Shown here in pieces: positions 27,277 through 54,975 of a DNA stretch of 54,975 nt. Source of the DNA: Alphaproteobacteria bacterium (lineage in GTDB: Bacteria; Pseudomonadota; Alphaproteobacteria; Rs-D84); the NCBI GenBank assembly GCA_033345155.1, contig JAWPOG010000023.1:1-54975 (forward strand), in the 5' to 3' direction. The translations under genes were made by a program, and so were the position numbers. The stretch's first letter is position 1; every line of letters starts with the position of its first letter. The notes beneath the pieces are model-generated. The model did no database searches, was not told where the DNA came from, and worked only from the letters and a program-made list of their open reading frames with translations.

Positions 27277-29805
27277 GTGGCAGACAAAGGCAAATTAACC
27301 CCGGTTATGCAACAATATGTTGACATGAAGTCTGAAAATCCAGACGCATTGTTGATGTTTCGGCTGGGGGATTTTTATGAATCTTTTTTTGAAGATGCAC
27401 ATATAATCAGTGCGGCCCTGGGACTGGTATTGACTGCACGTGGCACCGACGGCAATGGCAACGAAATCCCAATGTGTGGTATTCCATGGCATGCGGCAGA
27501 CAACTATTTTGGTCGTTTGGTTCGTGCCGGCCACAAGGTTGCATTGGTCGAGCAAATGGAAACCCCCGCCCAGGCCAAGGCCCGTGGGCATAAATTTATA
27601 GAGCGTCGGGTTGTTCGTGTTTTAACGCCGGGTACATTAACCGATGAAAATTTATTGACGCCAAAAAATTCAAATTTCTTGGTTTCGGTTGTACCGATTG
27701 GTGGGGGCAAATATGATATTGCCGGCTGTGACATTTCAACCGGTGAATTTTTTATTGGCCAAACGGGCGAGCCAATTGATGACCTGGTGCGTATCAATCC
27801 GGCCGAAGTTATTTTTCCTTTTCACACAGCCGAAGAAAAAACGATTTCTAAATTGCGGGAAATGTTCAAATCTGCGCCTGTATATGAAAAATTATATCAT
27901 CGTGCGGACATAGATATGGTTGTTTCGCGCGTTTTTGGTGGGGCGATTGATGCGGGTGCGGCAACAAAAAATACAGACGGCGCGATATGTTTATTGGCGG
28001 GCTATTTATTCAACACTCAACGCGATGCCACGATAACATTTCGTGCGCCATACACATTCAAGTCTGGCCGGCAATTATTGATTGATTCTGCTACCTGGCG
28101 CAGTCTTGAAATTGATGCCCCGATAAACGATGGTGGTGCATGTTTGATTGATGTGTTGGACGAAACTCGTACGGCGGCGGGTGCTCGTAAATTGCGTTCG
28201 TATTTGCGGAATTTGTCAGCGGATGTTGACCAGATAAATATGCGCCAATCGCACATTTCACATTTTATATTAAACCCTGACATTTGTGCATTGGTTGAAA
28301 ATATTTTGGCGTCTGTGCCCGATGTGGGGCGCAGTTTATCGCGTTTATTGTCTGGTCGTGGCACACCGCGTGACATGCGCAATATATCTGATTTTATGGT
28401 TATTTTACCACGCGCCCAGTTATTGTCGTGTCGTCTAGATTCTGGTTTTGCGTCGCGTTTTGAACAGATTAAGACTCATGGTGAATTGTGTGCGAAATTG
28501 GTTCGTGCACTGTCGGATGAATTGCCGACATTCTTTCGTGATGGTGGCGTGATACGCACCGGGTTTGACATTTCTTTGGACAACATGCGCGAGCTGTCTA
28601 ACGGAGCGCGCGAAACGATTGCGGGGCTGCAGAATCAATATATATCCCAGACGGGGATAAATAACTTGAAAATCAAGTACAACAATATTCTGGGCTATTT
28701 TATCGAGGTTCCGTCCACCCGTGCGGATGTTCTGATGGCGCCACAATCAGGATTTATACATCGTCAAACAATGTCTGGCAACATGCGATTTACTACATCT
28801 CGCCTGATAGATCTGGACAATGAGGTTCGCAGCGCTGCGGAAAAGGCTGCCGCAATCGAAGATGAAATAGTACGGCAATTGACGGAACATATTCGTGAAA
28901 TATCCGATGATTTATTGTGTGCAGCGGATTTATTGGCGGACGTGGATGTATGGGTTTCGTTGACGCGTGTGGCGGACAAATATGCCTGGGTACGACCGGT
29001 TATAACGGATGATTGTGCGTTTGATATATCTGGCGGTCGTCACCCAGTGATTGAATCTGTATTGCGCACGCGTGGTGATAATTTTGTTAAAAACGATTGT
29101 AATCTGAACGTGCATGCAATTGCATTATTGACGGGGCCAAATATGGCGGGCAAATCGACATATCTGCGTCAAAATGCATTGATTGTTGTTTTGGCGCACC
29201 TGGGGTCATATGTTCCTGCTGTATCTGCGACAATTGGTATTTGCGACCAGTTATTCAGTCGTGTTGGCGCATCTGACAATTTGGCGGCAGGTCAGTCAAC
29301 ATTCATGGTAGAAATGAGTGAAACCGCCAACATTTTGAACCGCGCGACAAACCGTTCATTTATAATCTTTGACGAAATAGGGCGGGGCACTGCGACCTAT
29401 GACGGTATGGCGATTGCTCAGGCGGTATTAGAATACCTGGACAAAATGAGTCCACGCACATTGTTTGCTACGCACTATCATGAATTAACGGCATTGATAT
29501 TGAATGGTTATCTGAAACATGCGTCATGTTTAACAATAGAGGTTCGTGAACATAACAACGAGATAATCTTTATGCACAAAATTGCGCCTGGGGTTGCAAA
29601 TCGTTCGTACGGTATCCATGTTGCGCGCATGGCGGGCATGCCAAAATCGGTGGTTGCACGGGCCGAGTGTGTGTTAAATTCGCTGGAATCACATTCGGTT
29701 CAGGTTGTGCCCACCCAAACTGCACCCGTATCGCATTCTGCACAAAAAAAACCAAGTGTTTCAGACGATTTGTTGGGGCAGTTAAATTTATTTGGTTCGC
29801 TGTAA
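27277..29805 (+). CDS. mutS: DNA mismatch repair protein MutS
   Basis: TPVMQQY, GDFYE, TGPNMAGKST, STFMVEM, DEIGRGT, FATHYHEL. Confidence 0.97.
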   Translation: MADKGKLTPVMQQYVDMKSENPDALLMFRLGDFYESFFEDAHIISAALGLVLTARGTDGNGNEIPMCGIPWHAADNYFGRLVRAGHKVALVEQMETPAQAKARGHKFIERRVVRVLTPGTLTDENLLTPKNSNFLVSVVPIGGGKYDIAGCDISTGEFFIGQTGEPIDDLVRINPAEVIFPFHTAEEKTISKLREMFKSAPVYEKLYHRADIDMVVSRVFGGAIDAGAATKNTDGAICLLAGYLFNTQRDATITFRAPYTFKSGRQLLIDSATWRSLEIDAPINDGGACLIDVLDETRTAAGARKLRSYLRNLSADVDQINMRQSHISHFILNPDICALVENILASVPDVGRSLSRLLSGRGTPRDMRNISDFMVILPRAQLLSCRLDSGFASRFEQIKTHGELCAKLVRALSDELPTFFRDGGVIRTGFDISLDNMRELSNGARETIAGLQNQYISQTGINNLKIKYNNILGYFIEVPSTRADVLMAPQSGFIHRQTMSGNMRFTTSRLIDLDNEVRSAAEKAAAIEDEIVRQLTEHIREISDDLLCAADLLADVDVWVSLTRVADKYAWVRPVITDDCAFDISGGRHPVIESVLRTRGDNFVKNDCNLNVHAIALLTGPNMAGKSTYLRQNALIVVLAHLGSYVPAVSATIGICDQLFSRVGASDNLAAGQSTFMVEMSETANILNRATNRSFIIFDEIGRGTATYDGMAIAQAVLEYLDKMSPRTLFATHYHELTALILNGYLKHASCLTIEVREHNNEIIFMHKIAPGVANRSYGIHVARMAGMPKSVVARAECVLNSLESHSVQVVPTQTAPVSHSAQKKPSVSDDLLGQLNLFGSL

Positions 29806-29806
29806 A

Positions 29807-30682
29807 ATGACAAAATCAGGTTGGGTTATTTTGGACAAAGATTCGGGGCTGTTTTCACGAACGGCTGGCGGTCGCATTGCTCGTATGCTGGGGACTAAAA
29901 AGTTTGGTCACATTGGTACACTTGATCCCATGGCAACGGGGGTCCTGCCAATTGCTATTGGCGATGCGACCAAGATGATACCCTTTGTCGAAGACGCATC
30001 CAATCACATCAAAGAATACTTGTTTTCGTGTATTTTTGGGTTTGAAACAGATACTTTGGATATAACAGGCGTTGAAACGGCGCGCACAGATATCGTGCCA
30101 ACCCAATCCGATGTCCAAGCGGTATTGCCAAAATTTATCGGCAAAATTCAGCAAATCCCTCCAATTTACTCGGCTGTGCATGTGGATGGTATTCGCGCTT
30201 ATGATTTGGCGCGCCGGGGCAGGGCGGTTGATGTTCCTGCGCGCAATGTTGAAATATTTGCGCTGGAATTGATGGAAGTCCGTGGCAATTCGTGGCAATT
30301 TCGCATGCGATGCAGTCCTGGCACCTATGTGCGCAGTATTGCGCGAGATATTGCCAAATCATGTGGCACAGTTGCGACTGTTGATATGATAAGGCGCACC
30401 CAGACTAACGGTTTTGACATAAAAGATGCCGTAAAACTTGATTTTTTGGAAAAAGTGTTTAATAATACTGGCGATTTGGGTAAAAACCTAAAACCGGTGG
30501 ATTTTGGACTGGGGGACATTCCGGTTCTGAATCTGGACGATGAAGCCACTGAATTTTATAAAAACGGCGGCTTTATCGAAACGATTGCGACAAATGGTCT
30601 GCGTCGTGTTTATGCGGGTGATGTGTTCATTGGCATAGGCATGGTTGCGGATAATGTGTTGCGACCAAAACGAACAATATAA
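29807..30682 (+). CDS. truB: tRNA pseudouridine(55) synthase
   Basis: GHIGTLDPMATGVL, PPIYSA, GTYVRSIARD; upstream of rpsO. Confidence 0.96.
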   Translation: MTKSGWVILDKDSGLFSRTAGGRIARMLGTKKFGHIGTLDPMATGVLPIAIGDATKMIPFVEDASNHIKEYLFSCIFGFETDTLDITGVETARTDIVPTQSDVQAVLPKFIGKIQQIPPIYSAVHVDGIRAYDLARRGRAVDVPARNVEIFALELMEVRGNSWQFRMRCSPGTYVRSIARDIAKSCGTVATVDMIRRTQTNGFDIKDAVKLDFLEKVFNNTGDLGKNLKPVDFGLGDIPVLNLDDEATEFYKNGGFIETIATNGLRRVYAGDVFIGIGMVADNVLRPKRTI

Positions 30683-30700
30683 AAAATAAAAGGAAAAATA

Positions 30701-30973
30701 ATGTCCGTTACAAAGGCTAAAAAATCTGAATTGATTCAGGAATACAAGGTGTCTGATGTTGACAACGGTGGTTCCGTAGAATCCCAGGTTGCAGTTTTGA
30801 CAGAACGCATTCGCAACTTGACCGAACATATGAAGGCTAATCACAAAGATAATCACTCGAAACGTGGATTGTTGTTGATGGTTAACCGCCGCAAGAAATT
30901 GTTGGCATACATCAAAAAACGCAATGCGTCTGACTACGAAGCCCTGATTAAGAAATTGGGTCTGCGTAAATAA
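30701..30973 (+). CDS. rpsO: 30S ribosomal protein S15
   Basis: GSVESQVAVLTERI, KDNHSKRGLL, LIKKLGLRK. Confidence 0.98.
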   Translation: MSVTKAKKSELIQEYKVSDVDNGGSVESQVAVLTERIRNLTEHMKANHKDNHSKRGLLLMVNRRKKLLAYIKKRNASDYEALIKKLGLRK

Positions 30974-30974
30974 T

Positions 30975-30999
30975 AAAATCCCCCGATTGGGGGATTTTT
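30975..30999 (+). terminator. Intrinsic terminator after rpsO
   Basis: AAAATCCCCC-GATT-GGGGGATTTTT. Confidence 0.88.
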
Positions 31000-31085
31000 A
31001 ATTCCCCTCCTGTGGAGGGGGCGGACCGGCGCATGCCGGTGGGGAGGGTTGCTTATATAAAAAAAGTTTATCTAAGTAATCATGG

Positions 31086-31129
31086 ATTCCACCACTAACC
31101 ACTTACACTAACCACTAACCACTAAAAAA
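31086..31129. repeat. Heptamer (CCACTAA-type) cassette, copy B
   Basis: ATTCCACCACTAACCACTTACACTAACCACTAACCACTAAAAAA, abutting the HTH gene terminator. Confidence 0.9.
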
Positions 31130-31148
31130 TCCCCCAACCGGGGGATTT

Positions 31149-31367
31149 TTATTTACGTCGTTTGCATAAAATCATCGCCATACCATTCGTCATAACTTTT
31201 TGAATTATTTTGTCGGGCATTAAAACCTTGCCATTTTCTATTTTTATCAATTCAGAATGTGATACACCCAACAATTTTGCACATTCAAAGCGCGTGATAT
31301 GCATTGAATTTCGCGCCAGGCGCAAATAATTACCAAAATATTTTGCATCAACCAATACAACTGCCAT
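31149..31367 (-). CDS. Small XRE/Cro-like helix-turn-helix protein (72 aa)
   Basis: FGNYLRLAR..ITRFECAKLLGVS.SELIKIENGK; AGGAGG SD before ATG 31367; own terminator at 31124-31149. Confidence 0.85.
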   Translation of the reverse strand: MAVVLVDAKYFGNYLRLARNSMHITRFECAKLLGVSHSELIKIENGKVLMPDKIIQKVMTNGMAMILCKRRK

Positions 31368-31395
31368 TTGATTCCTCCTTTTTATTTTATCAAAT

Positions 31396-31557
31396 AAAAA
31401 ACCGCACATTAAAGGGCGGTTGGAGGTTAAGAACTATACAGATATAGTGCTGTTTATTTATATATATCACAGCCCCCCAACCAATTGTTGGAGAAAATTT
31501 AAAGTCTTCCGACTATCTGTAACGGGTTCTTACACCCCACACCGGTTTCCCAATGCC
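31396..31557 (-). ncRNA. Structured leader RNA with terminator/attenuator upstream of the HTH gene
   Basis: Long stem 31422-31448 pairing 31512-31538 enclosing three hairpins; then AACCGC/GCGGTT-U-tract before the SD. Confidence 0.6.
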
Positions 31558-31562
31558 CCCAT

Positions 31563-31591
31563 ATTATAATTGATATTTTTGATATATTCAA
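31563..31591 (-). promoter_or_regulatory. sigma70 promoter for the HTH leader
   Basis: TTGAAT-17 nt-TATAAT. Confidence 0.8.
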
Positions 31592-31651
31592 TCGATTAGA
31601 TAAATAAAAGTTTAGTTCAGCAAATAAAAACAGAATTTTTGAAAAAAATTC

Positions 31652-31684
31652 TGTCATCCCGTGGCTTGACCACGGGACCCAGGT
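31652..31684. repeat. Left palindromic inverted repeat of the GIY-YIG gene
   Basis: TGTCATCCCGTGGCTTGACCACGGGACCCAGGT, exact reverse complement of 32017-32049. Confidence 0.97.
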
Positions 31685-31691
31685 GGATTCC

Positions 31692-32000
31692 TTATAACAA
31701 ATTGTTCAAGTCATCATATAAATCGCGCCAAGTGGGATTATACTTTTCAATCAAATCTTTTTTCCAATTTCGTTTCCATTCTTTCAGTCGTTTTTCATGC
31801 CGTATTGCCTGGTTCACATCTTCAAAGCGTTCAAAATAAACCAACTTGTCCACATTGTATTTATTAGTAAAACCAGGCAACAAATGATTTTTGTGTTCAA
31901 AAATACGTTGTGGCAAATCACTAGTAAAACCAATATACAATGTTCCATTTTTGGCACTTGCCATAATATAAACATAATAATACTTTTGTTCAAAAATCAT
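31692..32000 (-). CDS. Stand-alone GIY-YIG nuclease (YhbQ-like)
   Basis: YYVYIM..TLYIGFTSDL..RIFEHK, FTNKY, LVYFE, AI.HEKRLKEW, NP.W.DL; start 32000 or 32015. Confidence 0.93.
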   Translation of the reverse strand: MIFEQKYYYVYIMASAKNGTLYIGFTSDLPQRIFEHKNHLLPGFTNKYNVDKLVYFERFEDVNQAIRHEKRLKEWKRNWKKDLIEKYNPTWRDLYDDLNNLL

Positions 32001-32016
32001 AACATAAGAATACATG

Positions 32017-32049
32017 ACCTGGGTCCCGTGGTCAAGCCACGGGATGACA
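32017..32049. repeat. Right palindromic inverted repeat of the GIY-YIG gene
   Basis: ACCTGGGTCCCGTGGTCAAGCCACGGGATGACA. Confidence 0.97.
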
Positions 32050-32110
32050 AAGGTTTTTAATCTCTTAACAAAAAATACCCCGCTAAACTTTTATTTAGCG
32101 CAAAAAAAGC

Positions 32111-32196
32111 CGTCACCCCGGCGCAGGCCGGGGTCTATTGTTTCATAGTGCAAATGATAAAGCCCGCAGAACACAATGGATACCGGCCTGCGCCGG
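32111..32196. repeat. Inverted doublet of GTCA-tagged palindromes with no gene inside (REPIN-like)
   Basis: CGTCACCCCGGCGCAGGCCGGGGTCTATTG ... CAATGGATACCGGCCTGCGCCGG. Confidence 0.8.
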
Positions 32197-32222
32197 TCCG
32201 CCCCCTCCAAGGGAGGGGAATT

Positions 32223-32249
32223 AAAAATCCCGCATACGCGGGATTTTTT
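32223..32249 (-). terminator. Intrinsic terminator of the OmpA-like gene
   Basis: AAAAATCCCGC-ATAC-GCGGGATTTTTT. Confidence 0.85.
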
Positions 32250-32266
32250 GTCTTTCCATCATCTGA

Positions 32267-33280
32267 TTATTGGATGCCGACGCGGAATTGGTCGCCCCAT
32301 TGGGCTACATTTTGACCACCAATGGTGCATTTTATGTCTTCAAAGCCATCTTCTACCTGATTCTTTTTTACAACATTACTGGTTATCAATCCGCCAACCG
32401 TCCCCAGTACCACAGCCGCAATACCATCAGATGCCAAACGCGCCGTATTAAAATTACCCTCTGCGTCTTTCCATACACTTCTTTTACCACGGAATTCTTT
32501 GTGGATTGTACTCAGCTTTTTGTAGTTGTCCAGGATGAGTTTATATTCTTTTAACTCTTTGGTTTCGGCTGAGTTGGTTTTGCCGGCATTTAAGCACTTT
32601 TGAAATGTTTCTTCAATATCGGCTTCTTTAAAGTCAGTATCGTTTTGTTTCTCTCGCACATGAGTGATATAGTTCTTGAACAGCGTGTCTGCGGGGCACT
32701 TTGAATCTTCTATTTGGTTGAGCTCCTGCCATTTTTTAAGGAACACTATGGTTCTATACTTATCGGTCTGTTTTGGATAGGAAAATAAAACCTCGACAGA
32801 ACGGAACGATGGAAGGTTGTTAGAGGAAGTCTTCGTCTGTGTGTTATTCTGGGATTCACCAGCGGTTCTTGTTACTTTTGGAATTGGTTCATCAAACTCC
32901 AGAAGACTCTTAATATAGGTGGCACGACTCTGTGCCAGCTGTACATTGGTGGTAGATGAGCCCAGTTCAGATGCGTATCCAATTATCGTAACGCCGATTA
33001 AGTCTTCGGTATTGTATTTGCTCGCAACTTCAGTAAATTTTTTTTTGCAATCCTCCGATAATTGATATTTATTAGTTTCAAAGCCAGTTATGCTGATTAT
33101 ATTTGGTAGGTTTTCGCCAGGTATAGCAACTGTTTCTTTGATGGCGCATGTGTCGCTATCGGCCGAGTTGGCAACCGCAGTCCAGCCCGTCACCGCCACA
33201 AATGACACAAAAAAAACCGTACGCAACAAGCCGTTTAAACTGGATTTTTTTTTCAAATTCATTTTTCCGAAAAAAAACAT
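32267..33280 (-). CDS. Exported protein with OmpA-like peptidoglycan-binding domain and C-terminal Gly-rich hydrophobic segment
   Basis: Signal/TM, FETNKYQL..IIGYAS..G..NVQLAQSRA..RSVEV, C-terminal GIAAVVLGTVGGLITS; GGAGG SD. Confidence 0.75.
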   Translation of the reverse strand: MFFFGKMNLKKKSSLNGLLRTVFFVSFVAVTGWTAVANSADSDTCAIKETVAIPGENLPNIISITGFETNKYQLSEDCKKKFTEVASKYNTEDLIGVTIIGYASELGSSTTNVQLAQSRATYIKSLLEFDEPIPKVTRTAGESQNNTQTKTSSNNLPSFRSVEVLFSYPKQTDKYRTIVFLKKWQELNQIEDSKCPADTLFKNYITHVREKQNDTDFKEADIEETFQKCLNAGKTNSAETKELKEYKLILDNYKKLSTIHKEFRGKRSVWKDAEGNFNTARLASDGIAAVVLGTVGGLITSNVVKKNQVEDGFEDIKCTIGGQNVAQWGDQFRVGIQ

Positions 33281-33580
33281 TTTTTGCCCCTCCCATATTC
33301 TAGCGCCGAATCTAAACGGTGGTTTGGATTCGGCAAACTTTCCTGTCCTGATTATTTGTCATTTTATCATATTTCCCGCGCCGTTCCAAGAATATTTTAA
33401 TCCCTATTTTTTGCTGTGTTGTATTTGTGAAGATGGTCTTTGTGAATATTGTCAAATTGTATATAGCAGATTTTCAAGGTGTATATTTTGTGACCAGAGA
33501 ACAGGATTGTATTGTGATGGGTGGAAATGAGGAATGTTAGTTTGTTGTTTTTATTGGGGGATAAATGTTTTAAGACCCTG

Positions 33581-33623
33581 TTCCCGCCTGTGCGGGAATG
33601 ACACAAAGGGGGCGGGAATGACA
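33581..33623. repeat. GTCA-tagged palindrome (dRS3-like) plus half copy, after dnaQ stop
   Basis: TTCCCGCCTGTGCGGGAATGACA and a second GCGGGAATGACA. Confidence 0.75.
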
Positions 33624-33629
33624 AGGGGG

Positions 33630-34307
33630 TTATTTGTTAATCTTTTCCATAAAGGTGTTATGGTTTTCAAGTTCATTGGGATTTGGGGTGAATTTGCGAT
33701 ATGGAAAATTACCGCCAATCTTGGGATGAGCCAGCATGGCCGCATGCTGTTTGGCAATTATTTCCGATACATTGGGGGCGGGGGCTGTGTTTTCTAATTC
33801 CAGATAAACACGCGCCAATATTTCCGAGTCAATTAATGCGCCATGTGCATCAGCACGCGCTGTTAATGATATGCCATACCATTTTGCCAGTGCGTCTAGG
33901 GTATAACTTTTTGGGCCAAATACACGATTGCGGGCGATGACCAGAGTGTCAATCATTTGTTCGCGGGAAATGGGGCGCAGGCCCAGTTTGCCTAGTTCGT
34001 GGTTTACAAACGGAAAGTCAAAGTCCATTCCGTTGTGGGCAATAATCGGACTGTCTCCAATAAATTCCAGAAATTTGGGTGCAACCGCAGACATTTTGGG
34101 TTTGTCTTCTAGAAAAGCGTTGGATATCTTGTGTACCATGTATGTGTCGGGTGGAATTATTTTTCCATCTGGGTTAATATATTCGTGAAAATTGTTTCCG
34201 GTGATTTTGCCGTCAATAACCTCGACCGCGCCAATTTCAATTATGCGGTCGCCACGCATGTATTCAAATCCAGTGGTTTCAATGTCAAAACAAATAACAC
34301 GTGCCAT
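33630..34307 (-). CDS. dnaQ: DNA polymerase III epsilon subunit
   Basis: DIETTG, AHN..FD, IDTL, TLDAL, HGALIDS (DEDDh exonuclease). Confidence 0.93.
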   Translation of the reverse strand: MARVICFDIETTGFEYMRGDRIIEIGAVEVIDGKITGNNFHEYINPDGKIIPPDTYMVHKISNAFLEDKPKMSAVAPKFLEFIGDSPIIAHNGMDFDFPFVNHELGKLGLRPISREQMIDTLVIARNRVFGPKSYTLDALAKWYGISLTARADAHGALIDSEILARVYLELENTAPAPNVSEIIAKQHAAMLAHPKIGGNFPYRKFTPNPNELENHNTFMEKINK

Positions 34308-34356
34308 AGTAATCCCAGTCCTTGATAATAATAGTTGCGAGTATTATAATAAAGCG

Positions 34357-36417
34357 ATGGATTTAATGCTAGGAAATCTTAATAACGAACAAAGGTTGGC
34401 GGTCGAAACAACACAGGGGCCGTTGTTGGTGCTGTCGGGTGCAGGAACTGGAAAAACACGTGTTTTGACCACCAGGATTGCATATATATTGAACAGTCGT
34501 TTGGCGCAGACATGGCAGGTGTTGGCATTGACTTTTACAAACAAGGCCGCAAATGAAATGAAAAAACGGTTAGAGGCTTGTTCAAATGGAGACTGGTATG
34601 CTGGGGATGTGTGGTGCGGAACATTTCATTCGATTTGCCTGCGGATTTTGCGAAGCAACGCGGAACGTGCAGGGTTAAGACGGGACTTTATTATATATGG
34701 CGAGGACGAGCAAAAGGCAGTTGTGAAATCCTTGATAAGCGAATCGACCAAGACACCAGCTGAATACGTCGAAGAATTTTCCGCAATCAAAGACAAAGGA
34801 TTGGTGGCACTGGAAAATAAAAATAAATTGTTTAATGCGTATAATGCCGAATTGATGCGATTGAACGCAGTTGATTTTGGCGATATTATATTAAAGGTGC
34901 TGGAACTGTTTGATAAAAATCCAGATATATTGGCGCGATATCAAAATCAATTTAAATATATTTTGGTCGATGAATTTCAAGATACTAATAATGCACAGAT
35001 GGAATTTTTGGTGTTGTTGACCCGTGGGGTGGATTGTCCGAATATTTGTTGTGTTGGGGATGATGACCAATCTATTTATTCGTGGCGTGGGGCGGAAATT
35101 AAACATATATTGAATTTTGAAAAAACTTTTCCAGATGCGCAGATAATACGATTGGAAACAAATTATCGCAGTACGGCAAATATTTTGAATGCGGCAAATT
35201 CGTTGATACGGCATAACCAAGGACGATTGGGCAAGGATTTGCGTGCCCAAAATGTGGATGCGGTGGGGGAACCTGTTTATGTGTTGACTTTGCCAACCGA
35301 CAGGGACGAGGCACGGATTATCGCTGATGCCATTGTGCGTGATGGAACAAATGATTTTACAAAATTTGCATTGTTGATCCGGGCAGGCAGTTTGTCACGC
35401 ATATTCGAAGAAGAATTTGCATCAAGGGGGATTCCGTATAGGTTGATTGGTGCTACTAGGTTCTATGACCGGATGGAGGTGCGCGATGTGATCGCTTATT
35501 TGCGATTGCTGGTGTATCCGTTTGATGATATGTCTTTTGTGCGGGTTATTGCAAAGCCTAGACGAGGATTCGGGGATAAAGCAATTGCAAATCTGCGCAC
35601 AAGTGGGGAAAATTTGATGAGTGCGATAAGGTGCGCAAAGCTGTCCTCGAAACAACGCACAGCAGCGGACGAATTTTTGTCGGCCTTTGATTTTGATTGG
35701 GGAAATTTGCCGCCAAAAGATGTGGCGAAAATTTTGCTGGAACGAACCGGGTATATGAAAATGTGGACCGAATCCAAAGATGCAGATGCCGCAGACCGAA
35801 TCGCAAATGTGCGTGAATTGATTAGTTCGGTAATAGCAAAATATGATACTTTGCCCGAGTTCTTGGAGCAGGCGGCGCTGATGATGACAGATGATAATGA
35901 TGCGAACGATGCAGGACAAAATGCAAATTCGGTCAGTATTATGACTGTGCATGCAGCCAAAGGATTAGAGTTTGATACTGTGTTTTTACCGGCCTGGGAA
36001 GATGGAATTTTCCCAAATGATAAAGCTATAAATGAAGGCGCAATCGAAGAAGAAAGGCGGTTGGCTTATGTCGCTATAACCAGAGCAAAAAAACGTTGCG
36101 TGATTTCTAATGCTATGATGCGATTTGTGTTTGGAACACGCACTTATAATTCGCCCAGTCGATTTATCACAGAAATGGATAATAAATATCTGGATTTTCA
36201 AGGTGGTGTGCCGCGGACTTATGCCCCCAGGGTTGAACACAGTTATACCCCAAAACCAAAAATGGGTAAATGTGCTTTGATGCTGGGGAAATTGGTTGTT
36301 CATGACGAGCTGGGGGCAGGGGTCGTGATAGAAGATGGGGGCGCTGTATTGACCGTTGCGTTTAAGTCCAAGGGTATAAAAAAAGTAGCACGCGAGTTTG
36401 TGAAAATATTAAATTAA
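34357..36417 (+). CDS. uvrD: UvrD/PcrA DNA helicase
   Basis: GAGTGKT, TFTNKAA, VDEFQD, GDDDQSIYSWRGA, NYRS, TVHAAKGLEF, EEERRLAYVAITRA; start at ATG 34357. Confidence 0.95.
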   Translation: MDLMLGNLNNEQRLAVETTQGPLLVLSGAGTGKTRVLTTRIAYILNSRLAQTWQVLALTFTNKAANEMKKRLEACSNGDWYAGDVWCGTFHSICLRILRSNAERAGLRRDFIIYGEDEQKAVVKSLISESTKTPAEYVEEFSAIKDKGLVALENKNKLFNAYNAELMRLNAVDFGDIILKVLELFDKNPDILARYQNQFKYILVDEFQDTNNAQMEFLVLLTRGVDCPNICCVGDDDQSIYSWRGAEIKHILNFEKTFPDAQIIRLETNYRSTANILNAANSLIRHNQGRLGKDLRAQNVDAVGEPVYVLTLPTDRDEARIIADAIVRDGTNDFTKFALLIRAGSLSRIFEEEFASRGIPYRLIGATRFYDRMEVRDVIAYLRLLVYPFDDMSFVRVIAKPRRGFGDKAIANLRTSGENLMSAIRCAKLSSKQRTAADEFLSAFDFDWGNLPPKDVAKILLERTGYMKMWTESKDADAADRIANVRELISSVIAKYDTLPEFLEQAALMMTDDNDANDAGQNANSVSIMTVHAAKGLEFDTVFLPAWEDGIFPNDKAINEGAIEEERRLAYVAITRAKKRCVISNAMMRFVFGTRTYNSPSRFITEMDNKYLDFQGGVPRTYAPRVEHSYTPKPKMGKCALMLGKLVVHDELGAGVVIEDGGAVLTVAFKSKGIKKVAREFVKILN

Positions 36418-54541: not shown

Positions 54542-54975
54542 CGCGCATTACCTGCCCCCCGTGTGGGGCGGGACAGTTTTACTTGACCCGCCATGCGGGT
54601 CTTTAGTAAAACTTGGGTGGGGGGTGTTTTTAGTGGTTAGTGTTTAGTGTTGGAATATATTACCACTACCCCGTCGGCAAAGCCGACACCCCTTCGCCAG
54701 CAAAGGGGATTTACTTAGATAAATAAAAGTTTAGTTAAGATATTAATTTTTAGAAATTAAGCGCCATTACCTGCCCCCGTGTGTGGGGCGGGCGGAATTC
54801 CCGACAATTTATTGGCGTAGGAATTCCGGGGTGGGGGGTGTTTTTAGTGGTTAGTGTTTAGTGTTGGAATATATTACCACTACCCCGTCGGCAAAGCCGA
54901 CACCCCTTCGCCAGCAAAGGGGATTTACTTAAGATAAATAAAAGTTTAGTTAAGATATTAATTTTTAGAAATTAA
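54542..54975. repeat. Tandem array of ~219-bp composite units with a variable hairpin insert
   Basis: Units 54542-54760 and 54761-54975 are near-identical except unrelated inserts at 54573-54614 and 54793-54828. Confidence 0.95.

Follow-up and report, generated by a model that had tools for sequence, protein, structure and literature searches.

A probable Ssn-type cassette in a small alphaproteobacterial genome: a GIY-YIG nuclease gene framed by TGTCA-tagged hairpins

Is a gene for a GIY-YIG nuclease of about 100 residues, tightly enclosed by two perfect inverted hairpin repeats, a minimal mobile element? This question is raised by a 398-bp unit at positions 31652-32049 of a 54,975-nt stretch of DNA (hereafter the window; positions 1 to 54,975 of contig JAWPOG010000023.1, assembly GCA_033345155.1) from an alphaproteobacterium. 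The window is contig C30 of a draft genome, here called G000, of 853,696 bp in 45 contigs with 43% G+C. A first-pass annotation had taken the unit for an uncharacterised system in which the nuclease mobilises or propagates GTCA-tagged palindromes. We find that it is very probably a new example, with a variant hairpin, of a known one, since the Ssn protein family, its repeats, called Ssn-related motifs (SRMs), and the hairpin-gene-hairpin layout were all published in 2025 (Chenal et al. 2025, PMC11893778). The analysis adds three gene/hairpin pairs, gene-less hairpin doublets with the ends of the unit, which in one relative are an exact deletion copy of it, sharp boundaries at the tags together with varied contexts, covariation of the stems, and a putative -35 box borne by the hairpin loop.

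The 398-bp unit and the published Ssn system

The unit consists of one gene between two 33-nt arms, the coordinates of which are collected in Table 1. As sequence reading, a repeat search and a script check agree, the arms are perfect reverse complements with TGTCA tags, which confirms the layout first described. The repeat search returned the pair as 42 nt, 93% complementary and 332 nt apart. By our own arithmetic, the chance expectation for a perfect 33-nt inverted repeat within 500 bp, anywhere in 55 kb, is about 1e-13. Each arm is made up of the TGTCA tag, a stem strand TCCCGTGG, the loop CTTGA, a second stem strand CCACGGGA and the tail CCCAGGT, with a stem of 8 bp and a loop of 5 nt. The gene-distal 33-mer has an identical copy at G000:C7:10736-10768.

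The sole protein-family match between the arms is the minus-strand open reading frame (ORF) 31692-32015, 107 aa from its first ATG, in which Pfam GIY-YIG (PF01541) spans residues 12-86 with an E value of 5.5e-15 and 55.9 bits against a cut-off of 22.6. A T5orf172 match to the same ORF stays below its cut-off, so that only PF01541 passes. Since the first in-frame ATG (32015) is absent from some orthologues and the ATG at 32000 is conserved, we placed the start at the latter, which gives a protein of 102 aa, the size that the first-pass annotation had estimated. Residues Y11, Y22, R32, H36, K37, E69 and N88 are invariant in 16 homologues. NCBIfam gave nothing above threshold, the group I intron endonuclease model reaching 20.4 bits against 56 (E 4e-4), and a sequence search of the PDB returned only the distant UPF0213/YhbQ-type proteins 1zg2 and 1ywl (E 2e-5 and 6e-4). 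An Rfam scan of 29000-36000 with E up to 1 yielded four matches, all far under their gathering scores and none of them on the hairpins.

The Ssn system was characterised in Neisseria meningitidis (Chenal et al. 2025, PMC11893778). SsnA, which belongs to CDD family cd10448, has 94 aa and GIY-YIG as its single domain. Its target is the hairpin repeat NTS, CGTCATTCCCGCGMAVGCGGGAATCYRG (dRS3 in an oriented form), which it binds solely in single-stranded DNA (ssDNA) and on just one of the strands. Cleavage falls a few nucleotides upstream of the motif and was abolished by mutation of Y6, Y17 and E64. Three further homologues, one of them from Wolbachia, acted likewise on their own repeats; Ssn proteins are described as having about 100 aa and as targeting a (C/T)GTCA-tagged hairpin, with duplex DNA and RNA ignored. 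An SRM lies nearby in 71% of the homologues and on both sides in 42%. The authors liken NTS-ssnA-NTS to an insertion sequence (IS), to IS200/IS605 and to the pairing of repetitive extragenic palindromes (REPs) with RAYT genes, and leave mobility as a hypothesis; the in vivo role demonstrated for a homologue is restriction of incoming ssDNA during transformation in Neisseria, not transposition. The idea that the small nuclease acts on the GTCA-tagged hairpins flanking its gene, which by analogy would hold here, agrees with what four homologues do in vitro, and the cleavage assay proposed in the first-pass annotation is already published for relatives. We found no further publication on the Ssn/SRM system, literature from 2023 on included.

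Repeats of this kind were described as CGTC-tagged REPs (Di Nocera et al. 2013, PMC3733652), with a CGTC or TGTC tag, a stem of 8-9 bp, a loop of 4-5 nt, a CCA tail and an arrangement mostly as head-to-head dimers. Families CGTC-1 to CGTC-4 include dRS3 of Neisseria and RPE-4 and RPE-6 of Rickettsia conorii, so the likeness to dRS3 and to Rickettsia palindromic elements noticed earlier is correct. In the account of Di Nocera et al., CGTC repeats are without a dedicated transposase and no RAYT/IS200 gene is flanked by CGTC units; mobilisation by other transposases was weighed.

Held against these descriptions, the unit is, to judge from its sequence, very probably an Ssn/SRM cassette. GIY-YIG is the sole domain of the protein, which at 102-107 aa is shorter than 150 aa, and the spacing of Tyr11, Tyr22 and Glu69 (11 and 47 residues) equals that of Y6, Y17 and E64 in N. 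meningitidis SsnA, a correspondence mapped by spacing, not by alignment. The published SRM pattern is HGTCWY N0-2 YYVSBRH N0-5 WNVSBRG N0-2 RNCYNB, of which at least one occurrence is expected within 500 bp on each side. It is found at 11 sites in the genome, that is, in 8 of the 13 hairpins of the type that flanks the window gene (type A) and in all 3 of another type (type C), and these sites include the hairpin upstream of a paralogue on contig C16. Both hairpins of the window unit miss this pattern at one position; defined by structure, as GTCA with a hairpin, the motif is present on both sides. One type-C copy (C34:43343) shares 27 of 28 positions with the NTS consensus given for Neisseria by Chenal et al. 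(PMC11893778). Type A also has the features of a CGTC-tagged REP, namely the tag TGTC(A), an 8-bp stem, a 5-nt loop, the tail CCCAGG and head-to-head doublets; in types B and C the stem is 7-8 bp and the loop 4 nt. The type-A hairpin is both an SRM and a CGTC/TGTC-tagged REP. The parallel drawn earlier with RAYT genes flanked by REPs holds for the layout alone: the only domain between the repeats is GIY-YIG, with no Y1_Tnp, and the tag is GTCA, not GTAG. Classical IS elements and MITEs (transposable elements of the miniature inverted-repeat kind) share the inverted ends, but their direct target duplication is absent at the copies inspected.

Hairpins and nuclease genes in the genome, the genus and beyond

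Three Ssn-like genes are present in the genome, each with its own hairpins facing inward on both sides. A second full unit, on C16, encodes a protein of 88% aa identity and has like ends (tblastn); a third gene, on C28 (49% aa identity), is flanked by a different hairpin, TGTCATTCCCGCGCAGGCGGGAA...AGGGTC (type B). A detector that allows stems of 6, for which the background is 2.7% per 315-nt flank, found no tagged hairpin in the available flanks of two other small GIY-YIG genes (C7 and C45) or of a uvrC-like gene. The ORFs of the former two (G000:C7:33081-33344 and G000:C45:6779-7066, the second with only 26 nt upstream) belong to another subfamily, with the motif FYVY...YIGQT/YVGCT...LKQHN/LKEHN. 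Chance pairing of two hairpins round an unrelated gene was considered and rejected: against that background, both flanks carry hairpins in 3 of 3 genes here and in 47 of 80 loci elsewhere.

With the detector made stricter (GC-rich stems of 7 or more), 39 hairpins were counted in the genome, 13 of type A, 10 of type B, 4 labelled type C (3 of them real, C34:54491 being misclassified) and 12 unclassified. The 853,696 bp contain 414 perfect hairpins whose stems are GC-rich; among these, the tags GTCA (n = 14) and TGTC (n = 11) compare with a mean of 1.6 per 4-mer and rank just after A-rich tags, which are marks of opposite-strand terminators. Stem variants include TCCCGTGG, TTCCGGGG and TTCCATGG.

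Homologues found with the 102-aa query (E up to 1e-5) are present in 43 of 81 genomes of the genus. Copies with 76% identity or more to the window protein all have type-A hairpins, the tag lying 33 nt ahead of the first ATG; those at 49-57% identity have CGTCA...TCCATTG hairpins (type C), and C28-type copies have type B. Every clade-A copy in the genus with enough flank carries type-A hairpins. Hairpin type tracks protein clade, as the first-pass annotation would have it. Type-A hairpins occur in 25 of the 81 genomes, 13 of which have a clade-A gene; none of the 56 genomes without such hairpins has one, in part by construction, as each gene brings two hairpins with it. The clade-A gene stays at one or two copies per genome, even where 40-60 hairpins are present.

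Farther afield, we retrieved 80 loci with a four-sequence alignment, from Saccharibacteria, Planctomycetes, Cyanobacteria, Bacteroidetes, many Proteobacteria and others, Neisseria and Wolbachia not being among them. An inward tagged hairpin lies within 300 bp upstream in 56 of these loci, downstream in 58 and on both sides in 47, and the stricter published SRM pattern is found on both sides in 26 of 80. Inverted hairpins are thus a regular companion of these genes, and the case that had been named as fatal to the original proposal, in which homologues mostly lack flanking repeats, does not occur.

The stems covary and are genome-specific. Across 20 distinct type-A hairpins, compensatory change affects five of the eight stem pairs, and 98.1% of the cells are paired; none of 500 shuffles attains either value, and shifting the partner by 1-3 columns brings pairing to 26-51%. 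In G019, G088, G015 and G021 the stem variants of the dispersed hairpins are those that flank the gene in the same genome; elsewhere the variants are different ones. Between species with saturated synonymous sites, the 33-mers are frequently identical. The ssn-like gene is under strong purifying selection, the ratio of nonsynonymous to synonymous divergence (dN/dS) being 0.03-0.09 in the 21 of 36 pairs with an estimable dS, with the rest saturated.

The proximal hairpin also appears to take part in expression. The -35 box TTGACC of the promoter-like site (Table 1) is formed by the loop plus the start of the 3' stem, and in the window unit an ATG lies 6 nt past the -10 box. In 10 of 10 clade-A units, which come from nine genomes, TTGACC and TATNNT lie 17-18 nt apart with the conserved ATG 6-10 nt later, and the C28 unit has TTGAAA-17 nt-TACAAT directly past its hairpin, with an ATG 6 nt beyond. 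From this arrangement we infer that the element end would drive transcription of a near-leaderless mRNA, the ssn-like gene being transcribed from a promoter in which the hairpin loop would supply the -35 box.

Tagged hairpins beside Ssn-like genes across distant phyla fall into two loop classes, one of 4 nt (e.g., GAAA, GCAG) and one containing CTTGA, both seen among loci L054-L133 (for instance L071, L073, L081, L090, L091, L059, L079, L086 and L113). The CTTGA class recurs in unrelated lineages and holds a -35-like word, TTGA(C). Promoter function or protein contact may constrain the hairpin loop.

Evidence on spread and competing explanations

Three DNA searches of the 81 genomes returned matches to the unit that start and stop at the tags. 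Nine of 12 loci align over the full 398 nt with 78-87% identity, and their flanks share short repeats only, except in G000, G024 and G065. The closest relatives judged by the adjacent rpsO are G044, G060, G024, G006 and G093 (92-95% identity), of which only G024 has a clade-A gene. Pseudogene copies exist (G083 with TGA, G021 with TAG), and the decayed unit of G083 lies inside a tRNA-terminator spacer of 540 bp, against 24 bp in G074. Gene-less hairpin doublets of 90-107 bp share both ends of the gene unit. One 90-bp doublet in G019 matches the 5' end of its own genome's unit at 39 of 39 nt and the 3' end at 36 of 36 nt; because the agreement continues past the 33-nt repeat to the segments with the promoter and the stop codon, this doublet is a copy of the unit made by internal deletion. 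Doublets derived by deletion, boundaries that are sharp and contexts that vary are, as comparative sequence evidence, compatible with an autonomous/non-autonomous pair. The best explanation as a whole, and in our judgment a likely one, is an Ssn cassette with gene-less derivatives, in which the doublets and the low-copy coding unit would form a REPIN/RAYT-like pair, alike in population structure and not in chemistry.

Among the 22 public runs listed, 20 hold part of the window and two hold half or more of its words; these are animal gut or feces metagenomes. Contigs assembled from such data break at the 33-nt repeats (pieces 31655-32102, 31656-32046 and 31656-32043), and joints such as 31620 to 32111 (37 other letters between, side of 20) are replacements via other repeats, not clean deletions. 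They bear neither way on excision or expression.

Several observations weigh against the identity as an Ssn cassette or against its mobility: 1) the two hairpins of the window unit have G in place of H at one degenerate position of the published SRM pattern; 2) G000, G024 and G065 share a neighbouring OmpA-like gene; 3) there is no direct target duplication at the window, C16 and C28 units, 10 clade-A units, 10 doublets of G019 and 5 doublets of G006; 4) no precise empty site, which the first-pass annotation had proposed to look for, was found in searches at the window, G088 and G083 loci; 5) the only orthologous filled/empty pair (G083/G074) is too diverged for a clean junction; 6) contigs of four metagenome runs covering 30700-33300 gave no allele without the unit; 7) the two gene units of the genome differ at a dS of 0.76, and therefore there has been no recent copying of the coding unit in this genome; 8) 12 of the 25 hairpin-bearing genomes have no clade-A gene; 9) the window-protein query found no homologue in G050, with 43 type-A hairpins, or in G004, with 17; and 10) the outer limits of the element are uncertain by about 20 nt, because the sequence just outside the tag falls into a few recurrent types, among them the palindrome at 31630-31654.

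Some of these points can be qualified. For G000, G024 and G065 inheritance is vertical, so the vertical synteny that had been named as a refutation is found for this subset and not for most of the 12 loci, which lie in unrelated contexts. At the window locus, the homology of relatives ends at a 15-nt module, TAAATAAAAGTTTAG (31601-31615), not at the unit, and in this mosaic region no empty site is definable; at the G088 locus the search returned no bridging match; and between G083 and G074 the adjoining ~54 and 80 nt of the spacers differ too, which leaves no exact junction. The hairpins of G050 and G004, both nearly complete genomes, are relics, are served by an unassembled gene or are otherwise maintained. 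In G004, 16 of the hits are exact matches of one stem variant, and the further one, with two mismatches, has a different stem. A/T-rich palindromes like that at 31630-31654 recur at C7, C24, C16 and C1, adjoin one end of 8 of 10 doublets in G019 and 4 of 5 in G006, and lie upstream of the genes of G019, G066, G016 and G064; they are either an optional end module or a preferred target.

A mechanism can be outlined from the tested homologues (PMC11893778). In ssDNA each repeat would fold into an 8-bp hairpin, and the nuclease would bind the hairpin and its 3' tail, on one strand only, and nick a few nucleotides 5' of the TGTCA tag, leaving duplex DNA and RNA alone. The cassette would be a nuclease gene of about 100 codons framed by two inward-facing recognition hairpins and, because the repeats are inverted, the cleavable forms of its two ends would lie on opposite strands and the cuts outside the unit. 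Since a GIY-YIG enzyme forms no covalent DNA intermediate, spread after ssDNA nicking would need host repair or recombination. It is possible, though we say so with some doubt, that the doublets and the nuclease's own unit owe their spread to the nuclease itself. More tentative still is the idea that the Ssn cassette could be the missing autonomous partner of the CGTC/TGTC-tagged REPs (dRS3, RPE-4/6 and kin), that is, a mobile element whose sole protein is a GIY-YIG ssDNA nuclease, without transposase chemistry, in which the unit would give rise to doublets by internal deletion, nicking beside the hairpins and host repair would copy both, and the hairpin would carry the promoter. If this were true, each element end would be recognition site, boundary and expression signal at once.

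As the main alternative, the same facts could reflect a resident, domesticated host function, in which the nuclease cuts ssDNA at hairpins (for restriction or to modulate recombination), the dispersed hairpins are targets spread by ordinary recombination or gene conversion, and the flanking copies are only autoregulatory or promoter elements. Restriction of ssDNA in transformation is indeed the only in vivo role known for a homologue (PMC11893778), and the strong purifying selection, the one or two clade-A copies per genome, the old paralogues (dS 0.76), the apparent use of the hairpin loop as a -35 box, the locus common to G000, G024 and G065 and the persistence of hairpins in the 12 genomes without the gene would all suit such a role. 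We nevertheless consider it rather unlikely, as the unit sits in unrelated contexts at most of the 12 loci with homology stopping at the tags, is missing from the close relatives G006, G044 and G060, exists in pseudogenised copies, and has doublets that copy the whole unit by deletion and are not mere binding sites; moreover, three distinct gene/hairpin pairs coexist within one 0.85-Mb genome.

The GIY-YIG superfamily includes free-standing homing endonucleases, and the gene might be a selfish one of the homing type, inserted between the hairpins of doublets that existed first and spreading by cutting gene-less doublets, with repair from the gene-bearing copy. Gene units and doublets do share both ends exactly, many genomes have doublets without the gene, and the sub-threshold NCBIfam match to a group I intron endonuclease model (E 4e-4) points, weakly, in this direction. 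What makes homing improbable is that the interior of the doublet retains the promoter and stop-codon segments (the 39/39 and 36/36 nt given above), which deletion from the unit fits better than an empty target; that one or two gene copies despite 40-60 available hairpins would make homing into doublets at best rare; and that the tested homologues cut ssDNA only, outside the motif (PMC11893778). Terminal inverted repeats with short gene-less derivatives are also the classic pattern of MITEs, and Di Nocera et al. weighed whether CGTC repeats might be mobilised by other transposases (PMC3733652). That the GIY-YIG gene is a passenger in a conventional MITE, on which an unrelated transposase (DDE or Y1/RAYT) acts in trans, is however very improbable: no copy inspected has a target-site duplication, one gene family goes with one kind of hairpin at 47 of the 80 loci from many phyla, unlike a passenger, hairpin type tracks nuclease clade, and the same account reports no RAYT/IS200 gene flanked by CGTC units.

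Neighbouring repeats and comparison with known systems

Table 1. Features of the cassette and its surroundings in the window
Feature	Position	Strand	Basis or remark
A/T-rich palindrome ACAGAATTTTT-GAA-AAAAATTCTGT	31630..31654	.	Sequence reading; overlaps and abuts the distal tag
Gene-distal hairpin repeat	31652..31684	+	Perfect inverted copy of the proximal arm, tag outward
ssn-like gene, 102-aa single-domain GIY-YIG nuclease	31695..32000	-	Pfam and orthologue-based start; stop codon 31692-31694
Promoter-like site TTGACC-17 nt-TATTCT	32007..32035	-	Promoter scan, 9/12 matches
Gene-proximal hairpin repeat	32017..32049	-	TGTCA tag, 8-bp stem, CTTGA loop, CCCAGGT tail; cognate Ssn-related motif
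Gene-less inverted pair, CGTCA-tagged, type C	32111..32196	.	Left arm CGTCACCCCGGCGCAGGCCGGGGTCTATTGT; fits the published SRM pattern
Gene-less type-B hairpin (TGTCATTCCCGCACAGGCGGGAACAGGGTCT on the minus strand) and half copy	33574..33623	-	Matches the hairpin type of the C28 unit

The gene-less tagged hairpins reported near the unit in the first-pass annotation are real. In the type-C pair the tag of the right arm has been lost to the next repeat; hairpins of this type flank Ssn genes in the relatives' loci L009, L011 and L020. The type-B stretch comprises one TGTCATTCCCGC-type hairpin on the minus strand (33574-33604) and a 12-nt half copy (33612-33623).

The 15-nt module TAAATAAAAGTTTAG occurs 24 times (up to one mismatch) on 10 contigs, often by contig ends. 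At 31601-31615 and, inverted, at 32083-32097 it brackets the whole Ssn unit, and it is also found at 54720 and 54935. Upstream, the homology of a segment with a helix-turn-helix gene to relatives ends exactly at this module, with unrelated sequence beyond it in G060, G006 and G050, and the module looks like a recombination or module boundary in its own right. The gene in question, an 86-aa ORF (31149-31409, minus strand), has weak helix-turn-helix matches under the Pfam cut-offs; together with ~200 nt downstream it occurs at two places each in G006 and G060 (82-94% identity), always ending at TAAATAAAAGTTTAG, and is possibly a small mobile or cassette-like gene. A family of ~41-nt repeats, AATTCCCCTCC...GGAGGGGGCGGACCGGCGCATGCCGGT, with two internal palindromes, has 12 copies on 8 contigs, two of them in the window (31000-31040 and 32182-32222). 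These repeats interleave with Ssn hairpins in mosaic intergenic islands that resemble the intergenic mosaic elements of Neisseria.

The cassette, from a gut alphaproteobacterium that is uncultured and has a genome of some 0.85 Mb, is of value for comparison. Across dozens of small genomes of the genus, one hairpin type is found with the gene, without it or not at all, the doublets can be traced to the coding unit, and the stems have drifted by compensatory change. In this setting the question left by Di Nocera et al. (2013) and Chenal et al. (2025) becomes testable, namely whether the nuclease spreads CGTC repeats or is a host tool that uses them. The three paralogous pairs are, in addition, material for mapping how a 100-aa protein reads its hairpin, which matters for the proposed use of Ssn proteins as programmable ssDNA cutters.

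With REP/REPIN-RAYT systems the unit has in common a low-copy gene between inverted tagged hairpins, many short doublets elsewhere, genome-specific repeat variants and, by analogy with Ssn homologues, the recognition of folded ssDNA. It differs in having a GIY-YIG nuclease in place of an HUH Y1 transposase, with no covalent intermediate or strand transfer, and GTCA in place of GTAG as its tag. The UPF0213/YhbQ proteins (PDB 1zg2, 1ywl) are likewise stand-alone GIY-YIG proteins of about 100 aa, to which the similarity is only distant. To our knowledge, they have no association with tagged hairpins.

The CGTC-tagged REPs (PMC3733652) share the tag, the 8-9-bp stem, the 4-5-nt loop, the CCA-type tail and the head-to-head dimers, are mostly alphaproteobacterial and cluster with other repeats. 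No dedicated enzyme appears in that account, whereas here and in Chenal et al. a nuclease gene lies between two repeats. The closest match is the Ssn/NTS-SRM system (PMC11893778), with which the unit shares a GIY-YIG protein of about 100 aa and a single domain, a (C/T)GTCA hairpin with a short pyrimidine-rich tail, inverted hairpins on both sides of the gene, many copies in intergenic mosaic regions, presence in symbiont-type alphaproteobacteria, and the spacing of the three mutated catalytic residues. The hairpin itself differs, the window version having the 8-bp stem TCCCGTGG, the loop CTTGA and the tail CCCAGGT, compared to the published ATTCCCGCG-N4-CGCGGGAAT-CCAG. Deletion-copy doublets and a putative promoter built into the hairpin are seen here and are not described in the main text of that paper. 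Finally, the hairpins are at low copy, 13 of type A and not hundreds, and three paralogous gene/hairpin pairs share one small genome.

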